Source: Phycisphaerales bacterium (GTDB lineage: Bacteria; Planctomycetota; Phycisphaerae; UBA1845). From it: a DNA stretch of 64,000 nucleotides. The DNA lies in assembly GCA_013140575.1 (NCBI GenBank), contig JABFSN010000074.1:4431-68430 (forward strand). The letters run 5' to 3'. This document shows positions 11,915 to 42,689 of the stretch, piece after piece. The position numbers and the translations under genes were made by a program. Each line of letters starts with the position of its first letter. The first letter of the stretch is position 1. A model generated the notes under the pieces. The model worked only from the letters and a program-made list of their open reading frames with translations, made no database searches and had not been told where the DNA came from.

Positions 11915-11917
11915 GAC

Positions 11918-19773: not shown

Positions 19774-20082
19774 GTGAGTGACATCCGACCATTTATGATT
19801 GACATCCGCCCAGTTTATTTGGGGGTATTCTCGGAATTTGAAGCCAAGCTTCTTCGATTGTGGTTGCAATACACCCACGACCTTGAGGTTCGAGCTGAGT
19901 GTATTCGAGTGGGGCTTGTGACTGCATTTTCGCGACCCATTCATGAACCACGTAGCGAGATACTCAAGAACCGCAGTCTATGGAATCGTCTACGCGGGGA
20001 CGCACGAGATGTCCCATTCATGAATGTGAAAAGGTCCGTGAGGAGTTCTGTCGCACAAGACGGCGCGTCTTGTGCGGGATAG
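19774..20082 (+). CDS. Hypothetical protein upstream of hicA-hicB
   Basis: 102-aa ORF downstream of the strong promoter, preceded by GAGGAG; no family recognised. Confidence 0.3.
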   Translation: MSDIRPFMIDIRPVYLGVFSEFEAKLLRLWLQYTHDLEVRAECIRVGLVTAFSRPIHEPRSEILKNRSLWNRLRGDARDVPFMNVKRSVRSSVAQDGASCAG

Positions 20083-20184
20083 CGAGTTGCGGGCAAGGGC
20101 CCGGTCAATCCTAAAGGAGTGTCCATATGGGGTTCGAGAAGGGAATTCAGTTGAGGCGAATCATAACGAATTGGAGAGGTTCGG

Positions 20185-20376
20185 ATGTCCGAAAGACCAT
20201 TCTCGGAAGTCCTGAAAAAGCTGGAATTGCATGGATGGCTGTTGCAACGCGTATGGCCGCCGTATCGCGTGTTCATTCACCCGGATCATGACCTACCGTT
20301 GATGATCCCGGTGCATGACAGGATGGTAAACGAGGCCTACGTTGAAAAAATCAAAAAGCTCTTCGGCGAGGAATAA
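20185..20376 (+). CDS. hicA: HicA-like toxin (atypical active-site loop)
   Basis: FSEVLKKLELHGWLLQRV..YRVFIHP...IPVHDRMVNEAYVEKIKK fits the HicA layout; lies directly upstream of hicB. Confidence 0.7.
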   Translation: MSERPFSEVLKKLELHGWLLQRVWPPYRVFIHPDHDLPLMIPVHDRMVNEAYVEKIKKLFGEE

Positions 20377-20755
20377 ATCGTTGGATCGTCCGTTCGAACC
20401 AAGAATCCTCGAACGGGCGCGGGCGATCGTGGCGCGGTATCGGATCGTGCTGGAACCGAACGACGAGTTGGGCTACATCGGCTCGGCCGTCGAGATGCCC
20501 AACGCCTACGCCGACGGCAAAACGCCCGAACAATGCGTCGCGGCCACGCGCGAAGCACTGACCGCCGCCGTCGCCACCATGATCGAGATGGGCAAGCGTC
20601 CGCCGGTCGATCGCGGGCAGCGGTCCATGCAGGTGAACATCCGGCTGACCGCGCACGAAAAGCTGATCCTGGAAGACGCGGCCGCCCGCCGTGGATTCCG
20701 TGGTATTTCCGACTTCCTGCGTACGGCCGCCCTCGAAAAAAGCGAATCCAATTAG
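20342..20755 (+). CDS. hicB: HicB family antitoxin with C-terminal RHH (DUF1778-like) domain
   Basis: YRIVLE...GYIGSAVEMPNAYADGKTPEQCVAATREAL...PP, followed by QVNIRLTAHEKLILEDAAARRGFRGISDFLR. Confidence 0.85.
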   Translation: MKKSKSSSARNKSLDRPFEPRILERARAIVARYRIVLEPNDELGYIGSAVEMPNAYADGKTPEQCVAATREALTAAVATMIEMGKRPPVDRGQRSMQVNIRLTAHEKLILEDAAARRGFRGISDFLRTAALEKSESN

Positions 20756-20768
20756 CCGGTTGCGGGTG

Positions 20769-20791
20769 CCCCACCCCATCCTGGGGTGGGG
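20769..20791. terminator. GC-rich hairpin between convergent genes
   Basis: ccccacccca-tcc-tggggtgggg; no clear U-tract. Confidence 0.35.
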
Positions 20792-20845
20792 GACTGACGA
20801 CGGCGGTGGCGGTTCTGTGCCGGTTCCGGGGTTGCAGGCGCTTGT

Positions 20846-27639: not shown

Positions 27640-28290
27640 GTGACGAGACGAATCGGACCGCGAATGTCCGCGGCCGTTGCGGCGGTGGTGTTCGCCGGCA
27701 GCGGGGCGCGCGGCGACGGTCTGGCGAATCTGGAGTTCTCGCCGGCGGCGTCAACCGTCGGGGTGAACGACATCTTTTCGATCGATCTGATCGCGCGCAC
27801 CGTGGGCGAGAAAGAAGTTCCCATGTCGGGGATGACCGTCGTCCTCGATTGGGATCCGAGTTTTTTGCAGTTGGTGGGACTGGTCAACCGACCGGCGAGC
27901 GGTTTGAACTCGAGTTTTCCGGGTTTGCTTCAGGGCGATTTCGACCATTTGAATCAGACGTTTTTGGATGGCGATGCGCTGTATCAGGGCATCGCGCAGC
28001 TCCCGCCGCCGCCGATACCGATCGCGGTGGCGAGTCCGGACGGGCTGCTGGTGACGACGTATCGGTTTCGCGCGCTGGCGATGACGGAGTCGACCGAGAT
28101 CACCATGCCCGCGATGCGGGGCATGTTCACCGAAACGGCAATCATCTCCGGAGTCATTCCGGGGTTGGATGTGCTGGGAACGTCCGGCACGGCGAGTATT
28201 CATGTCGTGCCGGAACCCGCGTCGGCGATGCTGGTGGGAGTCGGGCTGATTGCTGCCGGCCTACGCCGCCGCCGCGCGCCACGCGGTTGA
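27640..28290 (+). CDS. Cohesin-domain protein with PEP-CTERM anchor
   Basis: Signal peptide; FSPAASTVGVNDIFSIDL...VLDWDPSFLQLVG...LLVTTYRFRAL; VPEPASAMLVGVGLIAAGLRRRR; GTG start after GAGG-rich SD. Confidence 0.8.
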   Translation: MTRRIGPRMSAAVAAVVFAGSGARGDGLANLEFSPAASTVGVNDIFSIDLIARTVGEKEVPMSGMTVVLDWDPSFLQLVGLVNRPASGLNSSFPGLLQGDFDHLNQTFLDGDALYQGIAQLPPPPIPIAVASPDGLLVTTYRFRALAMTESTEITMPAMRGMFTETAIISGVIPGLDVLGTSGTASIHVVPEPASAMLVGVGLIAAGLRRRRAPRG

Positions 28291-28489
28291 GATCATACAG
28301 TTGTCGGGTTCGCCGTGGCCGCGCGGCGTGAACCGCGTTTGCACGAGATCGCTGTTTTGGGTAGCCCGATGGGACAATTCCTGGCTGCCCGTCGAACATG
28401 ATTGGAAAAAAGCGACCGCTGGGGGAGACGATGGTTGCCACGATGACCGGCAGCCGGAACTTGCAGGCGATCGAGAACGGAGTGGAAAC

Positions 28490-30034
28490 ATGTTGAATCG
28501 ACTATGGGGGTCGCCGTGGGTGATCGCGGCCCTGTTTCTGGGAGCGGCGTCAATGCCTGGCGCGGCGCAGGCGGATTGCGACACGAACGCGGATTGCCCG
28601 TTCGGCAACGTCTGCGACCCGAACGTGGGACCTGCGGGGACGTGCTTTCGCGGAGTGGACTTGTCGTTTTCGCCGGCATCGACCACGAAACTGGAGGGCA
28701 CCCAGTTCCAGGTCAATCTGATCGCCAAGGTTGCGACGGGCGCGACGCCGATCGACCTGACCGGCCTGACCGTAATCCTGGATTGGGATCCCACGGTGTT
28801 GCAACTGGTGGGTCTGACCCGGGCCAACGAGGGTTTCCCGTGGTTCCTCTCCGAGTTCAGCACGAGCAAGGACATCGACGGCATGAACGATTCGTTCCTG
28901 GACGGCGATGCCTACTACACGGCGCAGGGCCCGTTCCTGCCGCCGCGCCCGCAGGCGACGTTGGCGGGTCTGGTGGTCACCACCTTCATTTTCAATGTGG
29001 TCGGCGATTCCGAGGGCGGTCCGCCCACGCAGGTGGCCATGCCGCTGGACCTGGGCGGGTTCAACGACACGAAGGTGATTCTTTTCGACGACATTATCGC
29101 GGGCGTGGACATTCTGCGTAATCACACATCGTTGTCGGTGACGGCGCAGGCCGACTGCAATAACAACGGGGTGCGGGACCTGACCGACATCGCCAACCAG
29201 TCGTCGAAAGACTGCAATCTGAACACGATTCCGGACAAGTGCGAAATCGATATGACCACGATGCCGCAACCTCCGGGCGGGCCCTTCTTCTGCAACCCGG
29301 CCACCGACGCGTGCGACCCGGATTGCGACGGCGACGGCCGGATTGACCGGTGCCAGATCAACCAGAACAGCCCGGCGCCCGGCGGTCCGTGGTATTGCAA
29401 CCCGTCGGCGTCGTTGTGCGACGCGGACTGCAACGTCAACGGCATCGTGGATGCATGCGAATCGGACTGCGATTGCAACCTGATCGACGACGCCTGCGAT
29501 TTGAGTTGCGGAATGTCGGGCGGCCCGTGCGATGTGCCGGGTTGCGGCACGGGTGTGGACCGGCAGAATTGCGGCTTCGTGGGGCGACTGGACGATTGCG
29601 AAGTCGACTGCCACCAATCGGGTCAACCGGGATTCGGCACGCCCGACGCGTGCGATATTTTCGACGGCATCGTGCTGGACGTGAACCCGACCAATGGAAT
29701 CCCCGACGAATGCGAGTTCCTGTCCTGCTCGTCGCACGATGATTGCGACGATGAAAACGTGTGCACGCACGATGCCTGCAACATCGGGAATGGGACCTGT
29801 CAGGAGAACCTGCAGCGCAAATACGGCGACGTCAATTTCGATCAGACGATCGATATTTTCGACATCTTGTGCGTGCTGGACGGCTTCGCCGGGGTCTACA
29901 TCGTGTGCAGCCGCAGCAACGTGGACCTCGCACCGTGTCCGCAAGACCAGGTCATCGACGTTTTCGACATTCTGGGGGTGCTGGATGCATTCGCGGGGCT
30001 GAACGCGTGCAGCTGTACGCTCGGGCCGCCGTAG
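28490..30034 (+). CDS. Secreted cohesin + Cys-rich DCNxNG repeats + dockerin-like protein
   Basis: Signal ending AQA; cohesin paralogous to 27640 (ILDWDPTVLQLVG, FLDGDA, GLVVTTF); DCNNNG/DCNVNG repeats; GDVNFDQTIDIFDIL...DQVIDVFDIL. Confidence 0.78.
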   Translation: MLNRLWGSPWVIAALFLGAASMPGAAQADCDTNADCPFGNVCDPNVGPAGTCFRGVDLSFSPASTTKLEGTQFQVNLIAKVATGATPIDLTGLTVILDWDPTVLQLVGLTRANEGFPWFLSEFSTSKDIDGMNDSFLDGDAYYTAQGPFLPPRPQATLAGLVVTTFIFNVVGDSEGGPPTQVAMPLDLGGFNDTKVILFDDIIAGVDILRNHTSLSVTAQADCNNNGVRDLTDIANQSSKDCNLNTIPDKCEIDMTTMPQPPGGPFFCNPATDACDPDCDGDGRIDRCQINQNSPAPGGPWYCNPSASLCDADCNVNGIVDACESDCDCNLIDDACDLSCGMSGGPCDVPGCGTGVDRQNCGFVGRLDDCEVDCHQSGQPGFGTPDACDIFDGIVLDVNPTNGIPDECEFLSCSSHDDCDDENVCTHDACNIGNGTCQENLQRKYGDVNFDQTIDIFDILCVLDGFAGVYIVCSRSNVDLAPCPQDQVIDVFDILGVLDAFAGLNACSCTLGPP

Positions 30035-30202
30035 CGGAGTGGCACGCCTGAATTCCGGTTTCGGACTACACGGACAACGGTACGCCGTTGTCCGTGTCGT
30101 GGGGGGCCGATGGACGGGGCGCCGTGTCTGCCGGCGGGTTGAAGACACCGGCTTGCCAACGCGCCGGCCGGCGCCAGTCTTGCGATGCAACGGGTGGGAG
30201 TT

Positions 30203-32854
30203 ATGAAGCACGCTTTCGGCGACGGGTGTGTCATTGGCGGTCGACGGGGTGCTTCCCGATGCGCTCAACGGGTCGGCGCGAGGTCCGGACGCCGGCATCG
30301 TCCCACATGCCGTGGTTCGTTCACGAGCTCGGTCGTCGTGGTTGCTGTCGCCCTGGTTCAACCGCCGTGTCCGACGGATGCCCAATCGCCGCGCACCGCG
30401 TTCGATTCGAATGGCGCAGACGCGTTTGTCATTTCCGGCGGCCGTGTCGAGATTCAACTGGATCAGCAATCCCTGCGGGACGCGGGATTGACCGCACCGG
30501 CGCCGGCTGATGACGGTCGTGTTTTTGACATTGCCGAAGGCGATGCTTCGCTTGTATTGCGTGCGGTGGACGGCGACTGGCGCGGTGCGGAGGGCGGCGG
30601 CGTGACGCTGACCGGCGGGGCGCTGGAATTCCTCGTCCCGGCGGGTCGGCGCATGGTCGGGCGAGATTTTCGCCTCGAAAGCGATCGTTCCGGCGCGCGT
30701 GCCGGGGAGTTCGTCCTTGCGGCGCGCGGCGAGGGCGGAACGGTTTGGTTCGAGCTGTCCGCCGAGCGCCCTGAATTGGGGCCTGACGTCCGCGAATTCA
30801 CCATGCAGGCCGATTTGCGGCTGGCGTCGGAATTGGCCCATCGGTTGCGCGTGGGCCATGCGGCCGGCGCGCGAATCGGCTGCATCGTCCTGCACGCGCG
30901 ACTGGATCGAATCGGGCCGGCGGCGTTGGAGGTTGATCCGTTATTCGTCGCCGTTGAGACGGACATGACCGGGTCGGCGTCGGACGATTCGGAACCGGCG
31001 GGGCAGTTGCCCGGACCGGACGTGGTGACCGCATCGGTGGGCGCTCCGATCCAGTCCGGCCGGGAGGGCGTGCTCGGATCCGGGACGGTGGGAATGGCGT
31101 TGAGCACGGCGTCGTGCAACATGGGGCTGGTGGCGGTCAACTGGAACCGACTGCCGAGCACGGATCACCCGCTGATCGTCCAGAACCTGTACCGCATGCG
31201 TACCGAGGACGGCAGTGGCCGATTCGAGCAGATCGGTCAGGCCTGGCTGAAACACAGCTTTTCGACCATTGAAAGTGCGTTCTGCGGGACCACGTGTTTC
31301 TCGCTTCCGGGGGATCAGCAACTGGGTGTGGGCTGTTACGATCCCTACGGAGCGAGCACGAACGCCCTCGTGTGCGGTCTCGGCCCGCGATCGGGGGTCA
31401 ATCCGTTCACAGGCGCATTTCCCGGCGGGTCCAACATCGGAAGCGGGATCTGCTCGACGAATTATCCGGCGCGGAATCACCTGGGGCACACGCACACGGC
31501 GATCAGCCACAAGCTGCAGGTCCGGGATGCGGATTTGATGCCGCCGTTGAGCGACGGAGCCCGGTATTTCAGCGAAGCGCAGTACATCGTTCCGCACGAG
31601 TACCGGGAGCGTGCGGCCAGCGGGTCGGCCAACCTGTTCAACAACGTTTCGTACACCGAGGCCGAGAACCAGGGACCGGGCGGCGTGACGGGGGACGTTT
31701 TTTCGTTCGCGCTGCTGAGTGGAACCCACCTGGAGGAGCCGGCAATCAACGCATGGGCCGGGGCGACGCAGACGGTCGTCGAACCGGCGGCGGGGGAGGA
31801 CGGCCGGGCGATTCTGGCGTGCGCGGTCACCGAAATTGGTGCTAATATGTGGCACTACGAATACGGCGTGTACAACATGAATCTGGACCGTGCGATTGGA
31901 GCGTTCCGGATTCCGATTCCGCCCGCGGTGACGGTGTCCAACGTCGGGTTTCACGCGCCGCGCAACCATGACGCGGAGCCCAACGCCGAGACCTGGTCGA
32001 ACGACCCGTGGGACGCGACGGTCGAAAACGGCTGGATCGAATGGACAACGGACGTTTTCGCCACCAACCCGTTGGCGAACGCGGTGCGTTTCGGAACCCT
32101 GTACAGTTTTCGATTCGATGCGAACGCGCCGCCGATCGACGTGCAGGCGGAAATCGACACGTTCAAGATCGCATCGGCCGTGCCCATCGCGGTGCGGGGC
32201 CCGGCGCCGGTGCTGCCGCCGCACATCGTCCACGGTGAATCGGGCGCGGTCTTCGCGGCGCACGCGTTCGGCGGATTCGTGGATGCGCGCTCGGAAAGCA
32301 GCGACGGAGTGTCCGTCGATCGGGGCATTGACGGCGTGACGCTGCATTTCGATCAGCCGGTCCGGGCGATCGGCGGCGGAGTACCGTCCCCGGCGGCTTT
32401 TGAGGTCCGGGAAACAGGCGGCGGCGACCCGCCGATCGTCAATGACGTCACGCCCGCGGGGCCGTCGTCGGTTCATCTCGCGTTCAGCGGTCCGATCACG
32501 CTCGCGGAATGGACGACGATCGAGGCCCGCGTCGAGGGTTTGGGCGGCGTTCCGATCGTCAGCGCCGGCGATCAGGGGCCGGGTGCAGCGGAGACGGATC
32601 GCATCGACATAGGGTTCCTGCCGGGGGACGTGGACGGCAACGGCCGGGTGCAACCGGTCGATTTCATTCGTTATCGCCAATATGCGGCCGGTACGGTCGC
32701 TCCGTCGATGGGGATGCCTTCGGACTACCTCGACATGAACCGCGACGGCGTTTTTCAACCGGTCGACCTGATCGCTTTCCGGCAGACGTTGGCGGGAACC
32801 GGCACCGCGACGCGGGTATGGTTGGGAGCAACGATTGCGCACCCGCAACCGTAG
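30203..32854 (+). CDS. Large secreted protein with C-terminal Ig-like and dockerin-like modules
   Basis: Central Cys/His-containing domain (HPLIVQNLYR, FEQIGQAWLKH, GCYDPY, LGPRS); PGDVDGNGRVQPVD...DMNRDGVFQPVD; start uncertain (30185 or 30203). Confidence 0.7.
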   Translation: MKHAFGDGCVIGGRRGASRCAQRVGARSGRRHRPTCRGSFTSSVVVVAVALVQPPCPTDAQSPRTAFDSNGADAFVISGGRVEIQLDQQSLRDAGLTAPAPADDGRVFDIAEGDASLVLRAVDGDWRGAEGGGVTLTGGALEFLVPAGRRMVGRDFRLESDRSGARAGEFVLAARGEGGTVWFELSAERPELGPDVREFTMQADLRLASELAHRLRVGHAAGARIGCIVLHARLDRIGPAALEVDPLFVAVETDMTGSASDDSEPAGQLPGPDVVTASVGAPIQSGREGVLGSGTVGMALSTASCNMGLVAVNWNRLPSTDHPLIVQNLYRMRTEDGSGRFEQIGQAWLKHSFSTIESAFCGTTCFSLPGDQQLGVGCYDPYGASTNALVCGLGPRSGVNPFTGAFPGGSNIGSGICSTNYPARNHLGHTHTAISHKLQVRDADLMPPLSDGARYFSEAQYIVPHEYRERAASGSANLFNNVSYTEAENQGPGGVTGDVFSFALLSGTHLEEPAINAWAGATQTVVEPAAGEDGRAILACAVTEIGANMWHYEYGVYNMNLDRAIGAFRIPIPPAVTVSNVGFHAPRNHDAEPNAETWSNDPWDATVENGWIEWTTDVFATNPLANAVRFGTLYSFRFDANAPPIDVQAEIDTFKIASAVPIAVRGPAPVLPPHIVHGESGAVFAAHAFGGFVDARSESSDGVSVDRGIDGVTLHFDQPVRAIGGGVPSPAAFEVRETGGGDPPIVNDVTPAGPSSVHLAFSGPITLAEWTTIEARVEGLGGVPIVSAGDQGPGAAETDRIDIGFLPGDVDGNGRVQPVDFIRYRQYAAGTVAPSMGMPSDYLDMNRDGVFQPVDLIAFRQTLAGTGTATRVWLGATIAHPQP

Positions 32855-33394
32855 AAATCGACCGCCCAGGTTCAGCCGCTGCGACACGCCGGTCTGCGCG
32901 TCGCGCATATCGAGTTGATTTCAGAATAACTTCAATAACAAGCATTTGTTCCCGTCGCGGTTAGCGATTCCAGCCACGATTACGCCCGTGGAAACGACGC
33001 TGCGACAAATCCGCGGGGATGGAGGAGAATCGAGAATGCGGTGTCGTCCAACGGGCGAACCGCGCGGAATGGGGGCGTGAACTTGCACGATCCACCGATG
33101 TCGTCCCCCGGGTCACAGCGATTTCGCGGTTCGAATCGTGTGTTGCATGCGTTAGGTAGGGGCTTGAATGGGCATGGAAAAAAGGGGGGTGAAATCGCGG
33201 GGGCAATCGGTTATTATGGGTCTGTTGGAGTGCGCTGGACCCATCAGGGACGGGGGGCGTCCGGCGCTGGGGTTCCCGGTGAAAAAGGCCGGGGGCGGCA
33301 TGTCGACTCGTCGGCGGTGATGGCGTGCGGCGGTTCTGGTGTTTGCCGAGGCGCGGTCGCGGGGAAAAGTGTTTCCAAAGGAAGGAACAAGCAC

Positions 33395-36300
33395 ATGGTG
33401 CGGGTTATTGGCGGTGGGTCGTGCGTGTTGATGTTGCTGTGTCAGGTGGCGGCCGGTCAGCCGAAGATGTCGCTGAAACCGGTTGGGGGCGTGGGGAATA
33501 ACATCACGGTGGCGGCGGGATCGACGGTGGTTCTGGAGGTGTTCATTTCGGATGTGGCACCGACGGGATTGCGTGGATATCAGTCCACGTTGCCGTTTTC
33601 GGCGACGGGTGGGGTCAGCGGGACGATGATGCACAATGGAGTGGTGCCGGTCGTCAACACGGGGCGGGCGGATTATGTCTTCGCTGGGGTGACTTCGTTT
33701 CCGACCGCGGCGATCGGACCGCCGCCGCGGCTGGCGGCGGGCGTGTTCGCGGGCGACGTGCAACAAGTGAGCGCGGCGGAATACGCGGGCGAATTCACTT
33801 ATCTGGTGTCGAACGACGCGGTCGGCGATTTCACGCTGGCGTTTCAGGTCTTACCGCCACCGGCGCCGACATCGGCCCTGGCGAATCCCGCCAACCAGGC
33901 GATCGCAGGGGTGTTGTTCATTCCGGCGGTCATTCATGTGCCGTGCCTCAACAACGGCCAATGCAACAACGGCTTGTTCTGCGACGGACCGGAGACGTGC
34001 GTGCTGGGCAATTGCGTTCCGGGCACGCCGCCGTGCGTTGTGCCGACGCCGTTTTGCAACGAGGTCGCGGACGAGTGCGTGCAGTGCAATACCAGTGCAG
34101 AGTGCGAGGACGGGAATGCGTGCACCCAGGACGTGTGCACGTTGGGGACGTGTTCCTTCCCGCCGGAGGGGGCGGGCACGTCGTGCGGGAATTCGTTGGA
34201 CGATGGTTGCACCAACCCCGACACGTGCGACGGCGCGGGCGCCTGTTCGCCCAATCACGAGCCGAACGGAACCGGTTGCGACGACGGGCTGTTTTGCAAC
34301 ACCGGAGAGACGTGCACGGTGGGCGTTTGCGGCGGCGGGTCGGCGAACTCGTGCAACGACAGCCGGGCGTGCACGCTGGACTCGTGCGACGAGAATGGCG
34401 ACGCCTGCCTGCACAACGTGATTGCCGGCACGTGTTACATCGACGACGTCTGTTATCTGAACGGCGAGACGAATCCGACGAACGAGTGTCAATCCTGCAA
34501 TTCGGCCATGTCCGCGATCGACTGGACGAACGATCCCAATGGGGCGGCGTGCGCGACCGACGGATTGACGTGCACGTCGGACCAATGCCAGGCGGGCGTT
34601 TGCGATCACGCGCTGCAGGGCGGCACGTGCCTGATCGGCGGCGTGTGTTTCAACGCCGGGAATCTCAACCCGGGCAACGACTGCGAGAACTGCGACCCGG
34701 GATCGGCCACGACCGACTGGTCGTTCGTCGCGGACGGGACGGGCTGCGCGGAGGACGGGAACACCTGTACGGCGGATGAATGCCTGGCCGGTGCTTGCGA
34801 CCACGCCAACCATCCGATCGGCACGCTGTGCGACGACGGCGACCCGTGCACGGGCACGGGCGGACCGGGGGTGGACGATGACATGTGCGACGGACTGGGC
34901 ACGTGCGTAGGGGACCTGGACACGAACTGCGCGGACGATTGCGCGAACTCGATCGAGGCGTTCGAGGGGGCGAATTTCGGATCGAATGTGGGGTTTGGAC
35001 CGGACGATACCGAGGCGAGTTGCCAGCCGAATTCCAATCACGACGCCTGGTTCGAGTTTACGGCGCTTTGCGACGGCACCATGCAAATGACCACCACGGG
35101 CAGCACGTTCACGCCGTCGAACGACACGGTGTTGTCTGTTTTCGACGAATGCGACGGGACGGAAATCGCCTGCGATGACGACAGCGGCGAGCAACTTCTG
35201 TCGGCGTTGGTCGTGTTCAACGCGGTGGCGGGCCACACCTATTTCATCCGCGTGGCCGGTTTCGATCAGAACGTCGGCGGCATCCAGCTGAACATCCGCC
35301 GGCTGGACACCTGCCGGGTCGACGATGTGTGCTACGACGCCGGGGTCACCAACCCGGGCAACACGTGCGAGGAGTGTCAGCCGGTGTTTTCGACGACGGC
35401 TTGGACGCCGGCCATGCTGGGCAAGCCCTGCGGCGATCCCGGCGTGGGCGAGTGCGACAGTGCCGACGCGTGCGACGGCGCGGGTTTCTGCGAAGACAAC
35501 CACAAACCGGACGGGATCGCCTGTCTGGCGGACGCGAACGAATGCACGGACGACATTTGCCTTGCCGGATTGTGCGAGCACCCGTTCGAGGCGTCGGGGT
35601 TCGCCTGCGGTGATCCATTCGACAGCGAGTGCGACAACCCGGACACGTGCGACGGCGCCGGCGTCTGCGTGGACAATTTGGAGTTGCCCGGTTTCACGTG
35701 CGGCGATCCGTTGGACAGCGATTGCGACAATCCGGACACGTGCGACGGCGTGGGCGTGTGCGAGGACCATTTGGAGCCGGACGGGTTGGCATGCACCAGC
35801 GACTTCAATGATTGCACAAACGACTTCTGCGACGCCGGCTTCTGCACGCACCCGAATTCCGACGAGGGCACGTCCTGCGGCGATCCTACGGACACGGACT
35901 GCGACAATCCGGACACCTGCAACGGATTGGGCACGTGTCTGGATCATCTGGAGCTGGACGGAACGGTGTGCAGCGACCAGAACGTATGCACGGGGCCCGA
36001 TTTGTGCGCGACGGGTATTTGCATCGCGCCGTTCATCCCCGAGACGCCGCTGCTGCAGCCGTCCGGCGCCCGGGCCATGATCGTGACCGCCCAGCCGGGT
36101 GGTTCGCCGATCGGGCAAGCGCTGCGGGTGACCTCGCCCGAGCTTCCGTGCCTGTTGAAGTACGTCGATGTCGACGGGACGTTGGTGGATAGCCCGGTGG
36201 AGCAGTCGGCCGCCGCATGGGGGACGATTGTGGTGCGGGACACGGAGGTGGTTCCGGAGACCAAGTATGAGGTGGCCGCGGTGTGCGGCGGTGACGAATC

Positions 36301-37156
36301 GCCGGCGGCGTCGGTGGAAACGGGCAAGTGGGGGGATGTCAACAATGACACGTTTGTTGATATCTTCGACATTTTGTGCGTGCTTGACGGATTCGCCGGC
36401 GTGTTCACGAACTGCCCGTTTGAGACCGTCGACATGTCCCCGTGCGTTCCCGACGGCGTCATCGACATTTTCGACATCCTCATGATTTTGAGCGCGTTCC
36501 AGGGCGATGGATTCCCGTGCATCGGACCGTGCGGCGGCGGTGCGTGTTGCCACGGGGCGGTTTGCACCGTCGTGGCCAGCGGCGCGCTGTGCACCGGGGG
36601 TGGGGTGTACCAGGGTAATGGGATCAGTTGCGAAGCGTCGCCTTGCGGTTCGCCGTCACCGGCCGGTGCGGCCGGAGTGGTGATGGTTCGCCTTGTTCCG
36701 TCCCGGGAGGTAGTGCAGGGCGGGGAGATGGTGACGGTCGACGTCTACGCCGACGGTCTGAACGGATTGATCGGGTACCAACTCGCCGTGGAAGTCGTCG
36801 GGGGGCGCCGCGGGCGGCTGGAGCCCAAGTCGGTGGTCGTGGACGGCGAACGGGATCGATTCGCGTTCTCCGGACTTCAGAGTTTCCAAGCCGGCGACTT
36901 GGCGGGTCAGCGTCTGGCGGTCGCGGTGACCCCGGGCACGCCGACGCGAGCATCGGGCGGGTATCTGGGGACTTTTTCGTACCGTGCATCGGCCGACGCA
37001 CAGGGCGTGTTTATCGTCCGGCTGCGTCCGGCGGGCGGGGTTATGATGCTCGATTCCGCCGGCTTGGATCGTGGTTTCGTGGCTGATTCGGCGCAAATCA
37101 CGATTCGCGCCGAGAGGTCCGGTCAACGGAGCGGCTCGTTGAGCGGTCGGCGGTAG
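33395..37156 (+). CDS. Secreted cohesin-like / Cys-rich repeat / dockerin / cohesin-like protein
   Basis: SD aaggaagg; N- and C-terminal cohesin-like beta domains (GYQ...Y.G.F.Y..S.DA.G.F); CDNPDTCDG repeats; PPC-like ACDDDSG...YFIRVAG; GDVNNDTFVDIFDILCVLDGFAG. Confidence 0.75.
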   Translation: MVRVIGGGSCVLMLLCQVAAGQPKMSLKPVGGVGNNITVAAGSTVVLEVFISDVAPTGLRGYQSTLPFSATGGVSGTMMHNGVVPVVNTGRADYVFAGVTSFPTAAIGPPPRLAAGVFAGDVQQVSAAEYAGEFTYLVSNDAVGDFTLAFQVLPPPAPTSALANPANQAIAGVLFIPAVIHVPCLNNGQCNNGLFCDGPETCVLGNCVPGTPPCVVPTPFCNEVADECVQCNTSAECEDGNACTQDVCTLGTCSFPPEGAGTSCGNSLDDGCTNPDTCDGAGACSPNHEPNGTGCDDGLFCNTGETCTVGVCGGGSANSCNDSRACTLDSCDENGDACLHNVIAGTCYIDDVCYLNGETNPTNECQSCNSAMSAIDWTNDPNGAACATDGLTCTSDQCQAGVCDHALQGGTCLIGGVCFNAGNLNPGNDCENCDPGSATTDWSFVADGTGCAEDGNTCTADECLAGACDHANHPIGTLCDDGDPCTGTGGPGVDDDMCDGLGTCVGDLDTNCADDCANSIEAFEGANFGSNVGFGPDDTEASCQPNSNHDAWFEFTALCDGTMQMTTTGSTFTPSNDTVLSVFDECDGTEIACDDDSGEQLLSALVVFNAVAGHTYFIRVAGFDQNVGGIQLNIRRLDTCRVDDVCYDAGVTNPGNTCEECQPVFSTTAWTPAMLGKPCGDPGVGECDSADACDGAGFCEDNHKPDGIACLADANECTDDICLAGLCEHPFEASGFACGDPFDSECDNPDTCDGAGVCVDNLELPGFTCGDPLDSDCDNPDTCDGVGVCEDHLEPDGLACTSDFNDCTNDFCDAGFCTHPNSDEGTSCGDPTDTDCDNPDTCNGLGTCLDHLELDGTVCSDQNVCTGPDLCATGICIAPFIPETPLLQPSGARAMIVTAQPGGSPIGQALRVTSPELPCLLKYVDVDGTLVDSPVEQSAAAWGTIVVRDTEVVPETKYEVAAVCGGDESPAASVETGKWGDVNNDTFVDIFDILCVLDGFAGVFTNCPFETVDMSPCVPDGVIDIFDILMILSAFQGDGFPCIGPCGGGACCHGAVCTVVASGALCTGGGVYQGNGISCEASPCGSPSPAGAAGVVMVRLVPSREVVQGGEMVTVDVYADGLNGLIGYQLAVEVVGGRRGRLEPKSVVVDGERDRFAFSGLQSFQAGDLAGQRLAVAVTPGTPTRASGGYLGTFSYRASADAQGVFIVRLRPAGGVMMLDSAGLDRGFVADSAQITIRAERSGQRSGSLSGRR

Positions 37157-37626
37157 TCGATCCGTCCGGCGCGAATACATTGGGTTTTGTGCCTCCGCCG
37201 CGGGCGTAAGTGCCCGTGGCGGGGGCACTTAGCGTTGTTTCGGTGCGGTGCAAGGGGCGGTTGCGAAGGCGAGGCGTAGCGGCGACCGGTGCTTGGCTGC
37301 GCGCATTTCCGTGGTCGACCGCGGTGGAAACCCCCACTCCGGTGGAGGTCAATAAACGTCCGTTTTGTTATTGCATTTGGGTGGGCGGTTCGTTAATCTG
37401 GAGGCGAACGGAGGGGGTTTGGGACGCGGAAACGTGAGGCGGGGCTCGAGGGCGGGCCGTCTCGGCGGTTCCGTCGTTCGAAATCCACTCCATGGTTGCA
37501 GCGGCCCGGCGGTTGTGGAGCTGGTCCGCGAATCCTCCGTTGGTGCAGCGACACGTTTCGCGGCCTACTCCCGGCGCAGGGCGGCGAAACTCGGTGTCGA
37601 CCGGACACGGAAGTGTGAGGGGACCG

Positions 37627-40600
37627 ATGAAGAGCGAGGCGCGTGCGTTCCAGATTTTCGGCGGGCTGTTGATGGGTGCGGCGGTGTTGTTCGGCGCCCC
37701 GGCAGCGTGGGCGCAGGAGGAGGACGGCAACTCGCGTCGACCGAAAGAGGTTTCGCTGAACGGCGGGGGCATCTGGTTCTCGACGCCGTTGAATTGCACC
37801 ACGTGCAAGAGCATCGCGGGCGACCCGGCCGAGGTGTGCCCCGGCGACATCATCTCCGTTTCCTACAAGGCGCAGATGACCTCGAGCGACGACTGGGAAT
37901 CCACGGGCACAACCGTTGGGGGATTCTCCGAGATTTGCGTCAACACAGGGGATCACACGGAAAACGGAACTTACACCGAGGTGTTCACGGTCACGGCTCC
38001 TAACACTCCCGGCACGTACGACTTGTTCCTCGACGCTGAAGGCTCCAACACCGGATTGTTCAATAATTGCGAGGGCGGCACGGGGGGCGTCATCGAGTTG
38101 CTGGATGCCATTGTGGTGTCCTCGCCGAATTTGCCGCCGTGCTGCACGGCCGTGGACACCAACGACGACACCTGCGACGGCATCGACGACGACTGCGACG
38201 GCAAGACCGACGAAGACGCGGCGGACTGCGTGCCCTGCGGCGATCTGGTGGATGCGTGCATCTACCTGATGCTGGACCGGACGGGGAGCATGAATCAGGC
38301 GGGGCTGGACGCCGAAGAGGCGGCATCGGAACTGTTTCTCGGCTTTTTCGACGGCGTGGCCGACGCCCCGCCGGTGGCGATCGGGGCGTTCGGGTGCAAC
38401 GGGAGCGGCTTCCCCGCGAACGGATCGGGGCATCTGGGGTATTGCAGCGGTTTTCCCGATCGGGCGTGTACGCTGCAATCGCTGTCGGATACGGAGACGC
38501 CCGCGCCCTACGGCGACGACGACGCCATGGCCGACGCGGATCACTACGCGTTCATCGATCAGGCCACCGGAAGCATGAGCAGCGTGGGGACGCACTTCGC
38601 GTGCGCCCTGGACGTGGTGGGCACGGAACTGGTCCACGGCGCCTGTCCGGCGAACAAGCACAAGGTGTTGATTTTCCTGTCTGACGGCGGGGATCAGGAC
38701 GGGGCCAACTCGCTGACCGCGGCCGACCATCTGAAGATCGACGAAGACGTCGAGATTTTCACGATTCTGTTTCCGTCGGCGGCGGGAACGCCCACGCTGG
38801 CCGAGCAGGCGCAGATGGAGGCGATCGCCAGCGAGCCCAAGGCCACGCACTATTACCTGTCGCCGACCCCCGGCCAATTGAGCGGGATTTTCCAGTTGAT
38901 CGTCGAACAGATCGGGTGTGACGACGGCAACGATTGCACCGACGACATCTGCACCAACGGCACCTGCGATCAAACCAACAACAGCGATTCCTGCGACGAC
39001 ATGGACGCGTGCACGACGGGCGACGTGTGTTCGAACGGAGTGTGCACCGGCACACCGATGGTGTGTAACGACGGGAATGCGTGCACGGACGATTCCTGCG
39101 TGGGCGGGTCGTGCGTGTACACCAACAACACAGCCCCCTGCGACGACAGCAACGCGTGCACCACGGGGGACGTGTGTTCGGGCGGCGCCTGCGCCGGCAC
39201 GCCGGTGGTGTGCAACGACGGGAATGTGTGCACGGATGATTCCTGCGTGGGCGGGTCGTGCGTGTACACCAACAACACGGCCCCCTGCGACGACAGCAAC
39301 GCGTGCACCACGGGCGACGTGTGTTCGGGCGGCGCCTGCGCCGGCACGCCGGTGGTGTGCAACGACGGTTATGTCTGCACCGATGATTCCTGCGTGGGCG
39401 GAGCGTGCGTGTACACCAACAACACGGCTCCCTGCAACGACAGCAACGCGTGCACCACGGGCGACGTGTGTTCGGGCGGAACCTGCGCCGGCACGCCGGT
39501 GGTGTGCAACGACGGGAATGTGTGCACGGATGATTCCTGCGTGGGCGGGTCGTGCGTGTACACCAACAACACGGCCCCGTGCAACGACAGCGATGCCTGC
39601 ACCACGGGCGACGTGTGTTCGGGCGGAACCTGCGCCGGCACGCCGGTGGTGTGCAACGACGGTAATGTCTGCACGGACGATTCCTGCGTGGGCGGAGCGT
39701 GCGTGTACACCAACAACACGGCCCCGTGCAACGACAGCGATGCCTGCACCACGGGCGACGTGTGTTCGGGCGGAACCTGCGCCGGCACGCCGGTGGTGTG
39801 CAACGACGGTAATGTCTGCACCGATGATTCCTGCGTGGGCGGATCGTGCGTGTACACCAACAACACGGCCCCGTGCAACGACAGCGATGCCTGCACCACG
39901 GGCGACGTGTGTTCGGGCGGAAGCTGCGCCGGCACGCCGATGGTGTGCAACGACGGCAATGTCTGCACCGATGATTCCTGCGTGGGCGGATCGTGCGTGT
40001 ACACCAACAACACGGCCCCCTGCGACGACAGCGATGCCTGCACCACGGGGGACGTGTGTTCGGGCGGTGCCTGCGCCGGGACGCCGGTGGTGTGCAACGA
40101 TGGCAATGTGTGCACGGACGATTCCTGCGTGGGCGGGTCGTGCGTGTACACCAACAACACCGCGCCGTGCAGCGACGGCGACGCCTGCACTACGACTGAC
40201 GTGTGTTCGGGCGGTGCCTGCGCCGGGACGCCGGTGGTGTGCAACGATGGCAATGTGTGCACGGACGATTCCTGCGTGGGCGGGTCGTGCGTGTACACCA
40301 ACAACACCGCGCCGTGCAGCGACGGCGACGCCTGCACTACGGGTGACGTGTGTTCGGGCGGTGCCTGCGCCGGGACGCCGGTGGTGTGCAACGATGGCAA
40401 TGTGTGCACGGACGATTCCTGCGTGGGCGGGTCGTGCGTCTATACGAACAACACTGGTCCGTGCGACGACTTGAACGCCTGCACGACGGGCGACGTGTGT
40501 TCGGGCGGGACGTGCGCCGGCACGCCGGTGGTGTGCAACGACGGCAATGTCTGCACCGATGATTCCTGCGTGGGCGGATCGTGCGTGTACACCAACAACA

Positions 40601-42603
40601 CCGCTCCGTGCAGCGACGGTGATGCCTGCACCACGGGGGACGTGTGCTCGGGCGGGACGTGCGCCGGGTCGTCGGTGGTTTGCGACGACGGCAACGTGTG
40701 CACCGATGATTCGTGCGTGGGCGGGTCGTGCGTCTATACGAACAACACTGGCCCGTGCGACGATTTGGACGCTTGCACCACGGGTGACGTGTGTTCGGGC
40801 GGAACGTGCGCCGGGACGCCGATGGTGTGCAACGACGGGAACGTGTGCACGGACGACGCCTGCGTGGGCGGGTCGTGCGTGTATACCAACAACACCGTTC
40901 CCTGCGACGATAACGACTCCTGTACGACCGGCGATGTGTGCAACAACGGCACGTGCGGCTCGATGGCGATCATCTGCAACGACGGGAATGCATGCACGGA
41001 CGACAGCTGTCTGAACGGGTCGTGCGTGTACACGGACAACACGGCTCCATGCGACGACCTGGACCCCTGCACCACGGGCGACGTGTGTTCGGGCGGAACC
41101 TGCGCCGGGACGCCGGTGTTGGCCAACGACGGCAACGTGTGCACGGACGATTCCTGCGTGGGCGGGGTCGCCGTCTACACCAACAACACCAATCCGTGCG
41201 ATGACGGAAACGCCTGCACGACGGGCGACGTCTGTTCGGGCGGGATGTGCGCCGGATCGCCGATGGTGTGCGACGACGGGAACGTGTGTACGGACGACGC
41301 CTGCGTGGGCGGATCGTGCGTGTACACCAACAACACCGGTCCGTGCGACGACCTCGACGCGTGCACGACGGGCGACGTGTGCTCGGGCGGAGCGTGCGCC
41401 GGGACGCCGATGGTGTGCAACGACGGCAATGTGTGCACGGACGATTCCTGCGTGGGCGGGTCGTGTGTGTACACAAATAACACCGGTCCCTGCGACGACT
41501 TGGACCCGTGCACGACGGGCGACGTGTGCTCGGGCGGGACGTGCGCCGGGACGCCAATGGTGTGCAACGATGGCAACGGGTGCACGAACGATTCCTGCGT
41601 GGGCGGGTCGTGCGTGTACACCAACAACACCGGTCCCTGCGACGACCTGGACGCGTGCACCACGGGCGACGTCTGTTCGGGCGGGACGTGCGCCGGCACG
41701 CCGATGGTGTGCAACGACGGCAATGTCTGCACGGATGATTCCTGCGTGGGCGGGTCGTGCGTGTACACCAACAACACCGGTCCGTGCGACGACCTGGACG
41801 CGTGCACCACGGGCGACGTCTGTTCGGGCGGAATCTGCGCGGGAACGCCGATGGTGTGCAACGACGGAAACGCGTGCACGGACGATTCCTGCGTGGGCGG
41901 CTCGTGCGTGTTCACCAACAACACGGCACCGTGCAACGACGGAAACGCCTGCACGACGGGTGACGTGTGTTCGGGCGGGTCGTGCGCCGGCACGCCCATG
42001 GTGTGCAACGACGGCAATGTGTGCACGAACGATTCCTGCGTGGGCGGGTCGTGCGTGTTCACCAACAACACCAATCCCTGCACCGACGGAAATCTGTGCA
42101 CCACCGGAGACGTGTGCGCCGGCGGGACGTGCGCGGGGACGCCGGTGAACTGTTCGGCGTTGAACAACGATTGCAACGTTGGTACCTGCAGTCCGAACAC
42201 GGGCACCTGCGTGGCGCAACCGGCGAACGATAACGGCCCGTGTAACGACGCAAACTCGTGCACGCTGGGCGATCACTGCCTGGCCGGTGCCTGCGTGTTC
42301 AATTCCGTCAAGGACTGCGGCGGGATGAACACCGACTGCAAGTCCTTCGCATGCGCGCCGCTGGGCTCCCCGAGCAATTGCAGCGTCGTTACGGCGCACA
42401 CCGGTCAGACGTGTGACGACGGCGACAGTTGCACCGATCCGGATGCGTGCACGGCCCAGGGGGTGTGCGACGGCTTGCCGATCCCGCAGTGCAGGCCGGA
42501 CGTGCCGACGGTGTCGCAGTGGGGCCTGCTGGTGCTGCTGCTGGGCGGAATGTCGATGGGCACGATCCTGTTCGGACGGCGCTCGCGAACGGCTGCCGAA
42601 TAG
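37627..42603 (+). CDS. vWA domain adhesin with 22 Cys-rich repeats and IPTL-CTERM anchor
   Basis: Signal AWA-Q; MIDAS-like LDRTGSM, GTHFACAL, IFLSDG, IFTI; tandem repeats; VPTVSQWGLLVLLLGGMSMGTILFGRR. Confidence 0.85.
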   Translation: MKSEARAFQIFGGLLMGAAVLFGAPAAWAQEEDGNSRRPKEVSLNGGGIWFSTPLNCTTCKSIAGDPAEVCPGDIISVSYKAQMTSSDDWESTGTTVGGFSEICVNTGDHTENGTYTEVFTVTAPNTPGTYDLFLDAEGSNTGLFNNCEGGTGGVIELLDAIVVSSPNLPPCCTAVDTNDDTCDGIDDDCDGKTDEDAADCVPCGDLVDACIYLMLDRTGSMNQAGLDAEEAASELFLGFFDGVADAPPVAIGAFGCNGSGFPANGSGHLGYCSGFPDRACTLQSLSDTETPAPYGDDDAMADADHYAFIDQATGSMSSVGTHFACALDVVGTELVHGACPANKHKVLIFLSDGGDQDGANSLTAADHLKIDEDVEIFTILFPSAAGTPTLAEQAQMEAIASEPKATHYYLSPTPGQLSGIFQLIVEQIGCDDGNDCTDDICTNGTCDQTNNSDSCDDMDACTTGDVCSNGVCTGTPMVCNDGNACTDDSCVGGSCVYTNNTAPCDDSNACTTGDVCSGGACAGTPVVCNDGNVCTDDSCVGGSCVYTNNTAPCDDSNACTTGDVCSGGACAGTPVVCNDGYVCTDDSCVGGACVYTNNTAPCNDSNACTTGDVCSGGTCAGTPVVCNDGNVCTDDSCVGGSCVYTNNTAPCNDSDACTTGDVCSGGTCAGTPVVCNDGNVCTDDSCVGGACVYTNNTAPCNDSDACTTGDVCSGGTCAGTPVVCNDGNVCTDDSCVGGSCVYTNNTAPCNDSDACTTGDVCSGGSCAGTPMVCNDGNVCTDDSCVGGSCVYTNNTAPCDDSDACTTGDVCSGGACAGTPVVCNDGNVCTDDSCVGGSCVYTNNTAPCSDGDACTTTDVCSGGACAGTPVVCNDGNVCTDDSCVGGSCVYTNNTAPCSDGDACTTGDVCSGGACAGTPVVCNDGNVCTDDSCVGGSCVYTNNTGPCDDLNACTTGDVCSGGTCAGTPVVCNDGNVCTDDSCVGGSCVYTNNTAPCSDGDACTTGDVCSGGTCAGSSVVCDDGNVCTDDSCVGGSCVYTNNTGPCDDLDACTTGDVCSGGTCAGTPMVCNDGNVCTDDACVGGSCVYTNNTVPCDDNDSCTTGDVCNNGTCGSMAIICNDGNACTDDSCLNGSCVYTDNTAPCDDLDPCTTGDVCSGGTCAGTPVLANDGNVCTDDSCVGGVAVYTNNTNPCDDGNACTTGDVCSGGMCAGSPMVCDDGNVCTDDACVGGSCVYTNNTGPCDDLDACTTGDVCSGGACAGTPMVCNDGNVCTDDSCVGGSCVYTNNTGPCDDLDPCTTGDVCSGGTCAGTPMVCNDGNGCTNDSCVGGSCVYTNNTGPCDDLDACTTGDVCSGGTCAGTPMVCNDGNVCTDDSCVGGSCVYTNNTGPCDDLDACTTGDVCSGGICAGTPMVCNDGNACTDDSCVGGSCVFTNNTAPCNDGNACTTGDVCSGGSCAGTPMVCNDGNVCTNDSCVGGSCVFTNNTNPCTDGNLCTTGDVCAGGTCAGTPVNCSALNNDCNVGTCSPNTGTCVAQPANDNGPCNDANSCTLGDHCLAGACVFNSVKDCGGMNTDCKSFACAPLGSPSNCSVVTAHTGQTCDDGDSCTDPDACTAQGVCDGLPIPQCRPDVPTVSQWGLLVLLLGGMSMGTILFGRRSRTAAE
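38917..42150 (+). repeat. Intragenic tandem array, 22 x 147 bp (49 aa)
   Basis: Consensus CNDGNVCTDDSCVGGSCVYTNNTAPCxDxxACTTGDVCSGGxCAGTPxV; 22 x 147 = 3234 bp matches the span exactly; resembles Dictyostelium-type CTDC repeats. Confidence 0.95.
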
Positions 42604-42652
42604 GCCGCCCGCCGCGGTGACGTCGTGCGGCATCGACTCGTTCTGATCATTC

Positions 42653-42689
42653 AGACACGCGCTCCGGTTGGGCGCGTGTCTTTCTTTTT
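42653..42689 (+). terminator. Rho-independent terminator of the surface-protein cluster
   Basis: agacacgcgc-tccggttgg-gcgcgtgtct followed by ttcttttt. Confidence 0.8.

Follow-up and report, generated by a model that had tools for sequence, protein, structure and literature searches.

Positions 27640-42689 of the 64,000-nucleotide stretch of Phycisphaerales bacterium DNA analysed here (assembly GCA_013140575.1, contig JABFSN010000074.1; referred to below as 'the window') hold five co-oriented genes, whose products we call P1 to P5. We conclude that this bacterium of the Phycisphaerae probably has a genome-wide cohesin-dockerin display system of a non-cellulosomal kind, for which the locus supplies the anchoring and adaptor parts. 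That conclusion draws on the folds, motifs and copy numbers of the encoded modules, on their phyletic co-occurrence in related genomes and on the partial synteny of the cluster, all of which we observed. P1 combines a cohesin-like domain with a PEP-CTERM tail. P2 carries a related cohesin-like domain and ends in a cysteine-containing, dockerin-like module, termed DocC; P4 carries the same module between two cohesin-like domains of a second class. P3 ends in a type I dockerin, and P5 is a von Willebrand-type repeat protein. ORF and domain checks bore out the five co-oriented genes and the architectures that a first-pass annotation, made from the sequence alone, had given them (with a reservation on the tail of P5, described below).

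Cohesin folds and dockerin-like modules of the cluster

The beta domains of P1 and P2 are 38% identical (BLASTP E 6e-28) and define what we call class A. Class B consists of the N- and C-terminal beta domains of P4, which share 32% identity over 113 aa (E 6e-8). BLASTP detected no similarity between the two classes; their profiles are remotely homologous (hhalign E 2e-4, probability 47%). An AlphaFold2 (AF2) model of the P1 class A domain, computed from an alignment of 100 P1-family members (A1), had a mean predicted local distance difference test score (pLDDT) of 89.4 and a predicted template modelling score (pTM) of 0.81. A Foldseek search of the PDB with this model gave 122 matches at E≤0.001, and among the matches listed 37 of 39 were cohesins (type I, II and III and Clostridium perfringens cohesins), with E values from 2.4e-8 and template modelling (TM) scores by target of 0.6-0.78. 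For class B we modelled the C-terminal DocC-linker-cohesin piece of P4, using an alignment (A2) with 11 paralogous tandems of the same genome. The cohesin part of that model had a pLDDT above 90, and all 38 of the Foldseek matches listed for it were cohesins, the best being to Ruminococcus flavefaciens ScaB cohesins (TM by target 0.78, root-mean-square deviation 2.9 Å). The beta domain of P1 and the C-terminal beta domain of P4 are thus predicted to adopt the nine-stranded beta-sandwich fold of cohesins, and their identity to these modelled domains suggests the same fold for the beta domain of P2 and the N-terminal domain of P4. The models and the structural matches agree with the earlier assignment of these domains as cohesins or cohesin-like.

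This relationship is largely invisible to sequence searches. An exhaustive HMMER search at E≤1e-3 placed P1 in a family of 674 clusters (at 50% identity) with no assigned function, in which most of the 150 clusters listed are 200-260 aa long; Pfam Cohesin matched 4 of 100 family members at E≤0.01. A homologue search with P1 returned only unnamed or 'hypothetical' proteins, and the corresponding search with P2 mostly recovered its Cys-rich spacer, with the cohesin covered in 5 of 109 matches and the dockerin-like tail in 20. Single-sequence searches of PDB sequences with class A domains found nothing relevant, and an NCBIfam scan of P1-P5 matched PEP-CTERM tails only, under the family cut-offs apart from the P1 match given below, and no cohesin. 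The spacer of P4 also contains a GBD_T9SS_assoc domain (Pfam E 1.6e-9) that the first-pass annotation had not listed.

Class A is represented by three copies in the genome (P1, P2 and a gene on contig C17) and class B by 17 matches. Some class A cohesin proteins, namely that of C17 (G000:C17:11464-12327; L012 2462-3328, minus strand) and one at L116 (3793-4923, minus strand), end not in a PEP-CTERM tail but in a short, EF-hand-like or half-dockerin-like acidic segment (DFDIDGDIDLFD...). A third class of cohesin is present as well: Pfam Cohesin matches six further places in the genome. Two of these lie in reading frames that also encode a HYR module (Table 1); the frame on C36 additionally contains the dockerin module of P3, and the frame on C118 contains Pfam Dockerin_1.

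The C-terminus of P1 matched the PEP-CTERM models of Pfam (PF07589, 24 bits, cut-off 20.7) and NCBIfam (TIGR02595, 20.6 bits, cut-off 16). It reads VPEP...RRRR, with a PEP motif, a hydrophobic helix and an arginine cluster. The genome contains two strong matches to exosortase (PF09721; E 2e-59 and 7e-51) plus weaker ones, none of them within the window. A genome scan for PEP-CTERM gave 21 matches, 20 of them above cut-off, and P1 is the sole cohesin carrier among those 20 ORFs (the 21st, below cut-off, was left out). Because P1 is the only PEP-CTERM cohesin and exosortases are encoded in the genome, its proposed role as an anchor is plausible.

PEP-CTERM proteins also lie directly upstream of a Chlam_PMP/Dicty_CTDC/DocC/cohesin B protein at two near-duplicate loci, G000:C227:4741-12569 and G000:C101:266-4985. 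They belong to one family unrelated to P1, with three such ORFs on C227. We considered these PEP-CTERM neighbours of the dockerin-cohesin B genes as further cohesins and rejected them, since the class A profile matches only their PEP-CTERM tail.

Dockerins bind calcium through loops with Asp or Asn at positions 1, 3, 5, 9 and 12, each followed by a helix, in a duplicated segment of about 22 residues. The DocC modules of P2 and P4 are 63% identical, about 74 aa long and internally duplicated (a second alignment has 60% identity). An alignment of 39 copies (A3) gave the consensus FGDVNxDGxVDIFDILCVLDGFAGVF..C....VDLAPCPxGDGxIDIFDILAVLDAFAGVN.C.CP. Its first half contains a D-x-N-x-D-x3-D-x2-D loop followed by a helix, with D7, D15 and D18 invariant and N9 and D11 present in at least 90% of the 39 rows. 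In the second loop, positions 5, 9 and 12 are retained, but the acidic residues at positions 1 and 3 are missing and position 1 is an invariant cysteine. Four cysteines are invariant among the 39 copies and a fifth is nearly so, a pattern that suggests two disulfides. The mean column identity of the module is 63%, across proteins that are otherwise unrelated.

DocC showed no BLASTP similarity to the dockerin of P3, and single-sequence searches of PDB sequences with DocC found nothing relevant. Comparison of profiles did align the first repeat of DocC with that of the genome's canonical dockerin module (A3 against A5; hhalign E 3.7e-4, probability 36%), and the AF2 tandem model gave DocC two helices at pLDDT 57-74. 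In the ESM Atlas, whose results we used as leads only, Dockerin_1 was present in 24 of the 30 nearest named clusters (score 0.92), and 7 of 10 structural rows aligned on Dockerin_1. We therefore describe DocC as dockerin-like, at best a divergent relative of dockerins, and do not assign it to PF00404. The earlier statement that dockerins are present stands in this form: by Pfam for P3, and as a dockerin-like resemblance (hhalign and ESM Atlas) for P2 and P4.

The dockerin of P3 is canonical. Pfam Dockerin_1 (PF00404) matched it at 27.2 bits (cut-off 22.9), and a profile of the 214-aa module that contains it (A5) matched solved dockerins at E 4e-4. The segment described in the first pass as an 'Ig' domain is conserved together with the dockerin as this single 214-aa module. 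It has 14 matches in the genome, 13 of which (P3 included) are 43-55% identical over nearly their full length. The N-terminal domain of P3 (P3N) is itself a multi-copy family, with 15 matches to P3 in the genome and a match in 28 of the 41 genomes searched; no Pfam, NCBIfam or named ESM Atlas family covers it. P3N occurs fused to the dockerin module of P3, to DocC or to class B cohesins (on C118 and C83 of G000 and in many relatives), and L074 is a DocC-tagged cargo protein with a P3N domain. P3 had earlier been cast as a cap; with a multi-copy N-domain and a 14-copy second tag, it is no obvious candidate for that role.

DocC-tagged proteins, candidate partners and rival explanations

The genome from which the window comes is 5.05 Mb long, in 268 contigs, and 96.5% complete. 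A phmmer search of its 47,293 six-frame ORFs with the tail of P2 (i-E<1e-5) found DocC in 78 ORFs, and a profile search of the genome gave 86 matches. This is the genome-wide count of dockerin cargo that the first-pass annotation had proposed as a check; the 14 P3-type modules add to it. A Pfam scan (E≤1e-5) covered 72 of these 78 ORFs, the others being P2, P4 and four fragments of less than 200 aa; it assigned a family to 39 and none to 33. Nine are peptidases (one astacin, one M14, three S8, one trypsin with a P-domain, one reprolysin and two M43). FG-GAP-type propellers are the most numerous group (17 of 72), followed by beta-helix or Chlamydia-PMP repeats in six (one of which is also an S8 peptidase); BNR_2, DUF7901 and oxidoreductases (one GSDH, one di-haem oxidoreductase) account for two each. 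No glycoside hydrolase family was found in any of the 72, so that the absence of a recognisable glycoside hydrolase, first remarked on for the cluster, holds there and among these ORFs across the genome. Pfam likewise found no carbohydrate-binding module (CBM) in P1-P5.

The position of DocC within these proteins bears on whether it is a docking module at all. It lies no more than 12 aa from the stop codon in 66 of the 78 ORFs and is internal in the other 12. One could therefore regard DocC as a C-terminal sorting or attachment signal for a non-cohesin machinery, comparable to the C-terminal domains of the type IX secretion system (T9SS) or to exosortase signals, with the cohesin folds serving as generic adhesion or glycan-binding modules and the gene clustering reflecting co-regulation. 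The extreme C-terminal position is what such a signal would show, as is a conservation far greater than that of the carrier proteins; the degenerate second calcium loop, the four conserved cysteines, the failure of Pfam Dockerin_1 and Cohesin to match the modules of P1, P2 and P4, and a P1 family of 674 clusters without assigned function can all be read in the same way. We nevertheless consider this explanation unlikely. In 11 of the 12 ORFs with an internal DocC (P4 included) a class B cohesin directly follows it, an arrangement not expected of a secretion signal, and among the genomes described below the distribution of DocC coincides exactly with that of the class B cohesin fold. In addition, four independent weak lines of evidence give DocC dockerin-like features, and cellulosomal dockerins are likewise C-terminal and conserved within a species.

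The phyletic search covered 40 relatives, 24 from the same family and 16 from ten other families of the order. Within the family, 17 of the 24 genomes have DocC; outside it, one of the 16 does, with a weak match. Class B cohesins are present in exactly these 17 family genomes and in none of the 16 others. The seven family genomes that have neither module are 62-99% complete. Like the genome studied here, several relatives carry DocC in many copies (81 matches in G017, 41 in G015, 40 in G004 and 30 in G022). Class A was strong (E<1e-45) in eight genomes from which DocC and class B are both missing (G003, G009, G016, G025, G031, G034, G035 and G038), and a canonical Pfam dockerin is present in 7 of 100 P1-family members.

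These distributions lead us to a slight preference for one scheme of pairing, in which DocC would bind class B cohesins and class A cohesins would bind canonical dockerins such as that of P3, over one in which DocC also binds class A. Class B is favoured as the partner of DocC because DocC tracks it exactly while class A occurs without DocC, and canonical dockerins are favoured as partners of class A because of the eight DocC-less genomes and the P1-family members that carry such a dockerin. A complex prediction for the P1 class A domain (residues 19-183, A1) with DocC (A3) gave no answer, at a score of 0.00 in a run without controls, and we count it neither way.

The same observations bear on the picture drawn in the first-pass annotation, in which the five proteins alone would make an enzyme-free, self-assembling structural meshwork, P1 anchoring it, P2 polymerising head-to-tail through binding of class A to DocC, P4 branching and P3 capping. 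No recognisable enzyme is encoded in the cluster, cohesin and dockerin-like modules are combined in both P2 and P4, the spacers are Cys-rich, and dockerin-cohesin tandems permit chains in principle. Against this, DocC is common to 76 further ORFs, and among the 72 scanned it tags nine peptidases and two oxidoreductases, which speaks against a meshwork in place of an enzyme complex. Head-to-tail polymerisation of P2 needs binding between class A and DocC, and does not sit well with the distribution of either; the dockerin module of P3 is a 14-copy tag, and P3N is a cargo-like multi-copy family whose paralogue L074 has DocC in place of that tag. The branching role of P4 within a five-protein meshwork finds no support, and P5 carries neither cohesin nor dockerin. 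Overall we hold the meshwork to be quite improbable; the broader idea of a cohesin-dockerin scaffold anchored by a PEP-CTERM protein is plausible and gains strength from the present results. It is very unlikely that DocC simply clasps the class B cohesin next to it on the same chain, as a stabilising or auto-inhibited unit without assembly. The 11 tandems do have a flexible linker (modelled as disordered), but 66 DocC modules are not accompanied by a cohesin in cis, and some class B cohesins, such as the N-terminal domain of P4 and the one in L013 (a 286-aa protein with a class B cohesin and then DocC), have no DocC before them. The tandem model (pTM 0.57, low-confidence dockerin) has no confident packing, an observation that counts for little in either direction.

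Parts of the cluster recur elsewhere. In G017, which belongs to a different genus, a P2-like gene (class A cohesin and DocC), a P1-like gene (class A cohesin and PEP-CTERM) and an orthologue of P4 are adjacent and co-oriented; the orthologue shares 52% identity with P4 over 963 aa, as well as its order of cohesin B, DocC and cohesin B. In G004 a P1-like PEP-CTERM cohesin gene is followed directly by an orthologue of P3 (46% identity over the whole protein, 43% in the N-domain). G011 has a class A cohesin gene beside one for a 967-aa protein in which cohesins of classes A and B are combined, and its cluster also encodes a 2200-aa protein joining P3N to class B cohesins and a P4-like cohesin B-DocC-cohesin B protein. 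Class A cohesins of G015 and G022 lie beside, or are fused to, P5-like Cys repeats. A related-locus search with P4 in named records found five partial relatives and no full orthologue. The association of an anchor cohesin with an adaptor or scaffoldin and a P3-type protein is thus a recurrent one, with parts of the cluster syntenic in three other genera; synteny, which the first pass had suggested as a check, holds for these parts and not for the five-gene order as a whole.

Putting these observations together, we propose the following model. From what is known of PEP-CTERM families, P1 would be exported and its tail processed by an exosortase, which would leave its one class A cohesin displayed on the cell surface. 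P2 would act as a soluble secreted adaptor and P4, with its two class B cohesins, as a scaffoldin; the Cys-rich EGF/TSP-like spacers of both are presumably rigid, disulfide-bonded stalks. The roughly 80 secreted proteins tagged with DocC, whose known families are mostly peptidases, FG-GAP propellers and beta-helix/PMP-type adhesin-like proteins, would plug into cohesins, and 14 more proteins with the P3-type tag of beta-module and type I dockerin would also dock on cohesins. Chain extension is possible because DocC is directly followed by a class B cohesin in 11 proteins (P4 among them), each of which, once docked, would offer a new docking site. The outcome would be a surface layer rich in peptidases and in binding proteins of the propeller and beta-helix types, fit for attachment to proteinaceous particles and for their digestion. 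P5 would be a co-located vWA stalk adhesin and only a candidate member of the system.

A more specific version of this model may be offered tentatively: a lineage-restricted, disulfide-braced DocC and a dedicated class B cohesin might form a daisy chain, in which cargo proteins that end in DocC and a cohesin join head to tail and so spread peptidases and adhesins in extended arrays over the surface. The single PEP-CTERM cohesin P1 would attach the network to the cell through P2 and P4. If true, exosortase sorting and cohesin-dockerin assembly would for the first time be functionally connected, and the system would be a cellulosome-like machine that degrades protein, not polysaccharide.

Several points weigh against the display system that we propose. 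Pfam Cohesin had no match at E≤0.1 in any of the four beta domains of P1, P2 and P4, and Pfam Dockerin_1 had none at that level to the DocC of P2 or P4. Cohesins made up four of the five PDB sequences matched by the class A profile, at E values (0.3-1.3) that are not significant, and the same holds for the three dockerins among the weak matches of the DocC profile (E 0.4-1.0). The hhalign alignment of DocC with the canonical dockerin covers one repeat, at a probability of only 36%, and in the tandem model the dockerin has low-confidence pLDDT values of 57-74. The calcium dependence of DocC may differ from that of dockerins, because its second loop is without acidic residues at positions 1 and 3 and has a cysteine instead. 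The co-occurrence of DocC with class B is partly built in, and should be read as suggestive and not as a test, because the two are often fused and the genomes are kin. The full five-gene order was not conserved in the loci of six relatives that we examined, and both P3 and P5 are absent from the G017 cluster. The intergenic gaps from P1 to P5 measure 200, 150, 540 and 470 bp, a spacing that does not establish a single operon; the larger gaps, together with a second terminator-like site, argue against one. Genome counts are approximate, because the assembly is in 268 contigs and ORFs were taken from stop to stop. Finally, binding, the anchoring chemistry, surface location and function are in every case what we infer.

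Layout of the locus and its surroundings

The features of the cluster are collected in Table 1, together with the two third-class cohesin frames. P1 is 216 aa long and P2 514 aa. Each of the five N-termini has a basic region followed by a hydrophobic stretch, and signal peptides were judged from these by eye.

Table 1. Features of the five-gene cluster (window coordinates) and, in the last two rows, of the cohesin-HYR-dockerin frames elsewhere in the genome (contig coordinates)
Feature	Position	Strand	Content
P1	27640 (GTG) or 27664 (ATG)-28290	+	Signal peptide; class A cohesin ~27721-28206; PEP-CTERM tail 28207-28272; GTG start inferred from upstream sequence
P2	28490-30034	+	Signal peptide; class A cohesin 28652-29140; Cys-rich spacer; C-terminal DocC 29810-30031
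P3	30185/30203-32854	+	P3N (~400 aa) ~30989-32209; 214-aa module 32210-32851; start codon uncertain (30185, 30203 or later)
P3 module, dockerin match	32621-32770	+	Module consists of beta-rich segment and type I dockerin; Pfam match at this position
P4	33395-37156	+	Signal peptide; class B cohesin 33464-33950; Cys-rich EGF-like spacer
P4 spacer, GBD_T9SS_assoc domain	34985-35290	+	Pfam
P4 C-terminal part	36329-37126	+	DocC 36329-36553; Cys-rich linker; second class B cohesin 36677-37126
P5	37627-42603	+	Signal peptide; vWA (Pfam match 38572-38892); tandem repeats 38974-42147
P5 hydrophobic tail	42502-42555	+	IPTL-CTERM-like, below threshold
Sigma-70-like, promoter-like site before P4	33189-33217		Only such site of the region
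Weaker terminator-like hairpin just past P4 stop	37207-37231 (to 37241)	+	9-bp stem
Terminator-like hairpin after P5	42653-42681	+	12-bp stem, 8 G-C pairs; T-rich tail to 42691
Third-class cohesin frame	G000:C36:60863-62140		Pfam Cohesin, HYR and dockerin in one reading frame
Third-class cohesin frame	G000:C118:24135-25331		Pfam Cohesin, HYR and dockerin in one reading frame

The cluster is closed by a strong terminator-like hairpin, in line with the first-pass annotation, 50 bp past the stop codon of P5. A weaker hairpin lies just past P4, and P5 may have its own transcript. Two long non-coding gaps lie inside the cluster, at 32855-33394 (540 bp) and 37157-37626 (470 bp), the first of which contains the sigma-70-like site.

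For P5, the vWA domain (Pfam VWA 28.7 bits, cut-off 23.8) and the repeats of the first-pass description both stand: the tandem array consists of 21.6 copies of a 147-bp unit (49 aa, with Cys) at 87% identity. The IPTL-CTERM assignment does not, since PF18203 reached 13.1 bits against a cut-off of 20.8 (E 0.09). This tail was not among the 10 IPTL-CTERM matches of the genome scan at E≤0.1 and had no NCBIfam match, and its similarity to IPTL-CTERM is a motif-level resemblance only. The link of P5 to the other genes is the weakest of the associations within the cluster. In the relative G015, L099 (G015:C104, 3682-8904, minus strand) encodes a 1741-aa protein in which 49-aa Cys repeats like those of P5 are joined to a class A cohesin, the only hint that P5-type stalks functionally belong with cohesins.

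The cluster is flanked upstream by thrS and infC and downstream, beyond an unassigned stretch, by a Na+/H+ antiporter gene. Some 4-24 kb upstream (window positions 3767-23227, both strands) lies a polysaccharide export (Poly_export/SLBB) and glycosyltransferase region, an exopolysaccharide (EPS)-type neighbourhood of the kind usually linked to exosortase systems. Within it are a second PEP-CTERM ORF of the window (5180-5827, plus strand) and an FG-GAP/ASPIC protein. Adjacent genes at 9099-11914 (minus strand) encode a PRTase-CE protein (E 7e-44), a ParB_N-domain protein and a D12-class N6-adenine DNA methyltransferase. The part of the window in which they lie is the only one with a low GC content (0.56 at 10001-12000), and they may represent a mobile or conflict-system island.

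Comparison with known systems

Cohesin-dockerin assembly is understood almost only in cellulolytic Firmicutes, and its role elsewhere is a long-standing question. The components described here are small enough to test: a 216-aa PEP-CTERM cohesin, a 514-aa adaptor, a double-cohesin scaffoldin and a 74-aa tag on about 80 proteins reduce what was a loose hypothesis to a few protein pairs that can be tested. Should these pairs bind, they would explain how proteolysis and adhesion are organised on the outer surface of a planctomycete, give substrates of the PEP-CTERM/exosortase system a defined function and provide orthogonal, disulfide-stabilised cohesin-dockerin pairs for protein engineering. Should they not bind, DocC would be a new high-copy C-terminal sorting signal.

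The cellulosomes of Clostridia and Ruminococcus are built from scaffoldin gene clusters, type I, II and III cohesin-dockerin pairs, the X-dockerin dyad, and adaptor and anchoring scaffoldins. The present system resembles them in its cohesin fold (which best matches type II, type III and C. acetobutylicum cohesins), in the conserved, duplicated C-terminal dockerin tags on many secreted proteins, in adaptors that combine cohesin and dockerin, and in an anchoring cohesin encoded beside scaffoldins; the fusion of beta-module and dockerin in the tag of P3 resembles the X-dockerin dyad. It differs in its planctomycete host and in its candidate anchor, a PEP-CTERM/exosortase type where cellulosomes use SLH or sortase attachment. 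Further differences are the lack of any glycoside hydrolase among the 72 DocC cargo ORFs scanned and of CBMs in the scaffoldins, the four conserved cysteines and degenerate second loop of DocC, and the dockerin-cohesin tandems at the C-termini of cargo proteins.

Cohesin- and dockerin-like modules outside cellulolytic organisms were reportedly catalogued by Peer et al. in 2009, with their function unknown. Compared with such modules, those described here form a high-copy system (78-86 DocC, 14 P3 modules, 17 class B and 3 class A cohesins), with conserved gene clustering and a defined candidate anchor. Protein sorting by PEP-CTERM and exosortase is said to have been set out by Haft et al., and PEP-CTERM proteins are usually of unknown function. 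The tail features of P1, the exosortase genes, the 20 PEP-CTERM ORFs above cut-off and the EPS region of the window all agree with such a sorting system. What sets P1 apart is its cohesin passenger, which would link sorting to modular protein docking. Searches of open-access full text found nothing that treats dockerin together with PEP-CTERM; 'cohesin domain' with exosortase gave only work on anaerobic methanotrophic (ANME) archaea in which the two topics are treated separately, and dockerin with Phycisphaerae gave, as relevant by title, only the preprint and paper of Andrei et al.

It is to the hypothesis of that paper, the 'planctosome' of the Nemodlikiaceae (CL500-3, Phycisphaerae), that the display system described here comes closest (Andrei et al. 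2019, ISME J, PMC6461901). As set out there, the planctosome was proposed from domain co-occurrence, is experimentally untested, and comprises an LTD-tethered anchoring protein, a dockerin-HYR-cohesin adaptor and M12B and M14 peptidase cargo (PMC6461901). Both systems belong to hosts of the Phycisphaerae and combine cohesins and dockerins without cellulose degradation, and in both M12B reprolysin-like and M14 peptidases are dockerin-tagged (here L055, a reprolysin, and L043, an M14 peptidase, each with DocC). P-domain, TSP3-like and HYR modules are present in this genome too, and the C36 and C118 frames of G000, with a Pfam-type cohesin, HYR and dockerin, have the domains of the model's adaptor (PMC6461901).

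The anchors differ, being an LTD protein in the planctosome model and a PEP-CTERM cohesin candidate here; the main text of the paper has no occurrence of either 'PEP-CTERM' or 'exosortase', and its supplementary figures may hold architectures closer to the present ones (PMC6461901). In our genome LTD had one match above cut-off, in a 1467-aa frame on C192, and an external homologue of the dockerin-cohesin B proteins, P0265, carries LTD. The genomes also differ in size (about 5 Mb here, 2.6 Mb in the Nemodlikiaceae). Relative to the planctosome as described in that main text, the system presented here adds a PEP-CTERM cohesin, two cohesin classes that are invisible to Pfam, a Cys-dockerin variant in about 80 copies and dockerin-cohesin tandems (PMC6461901).

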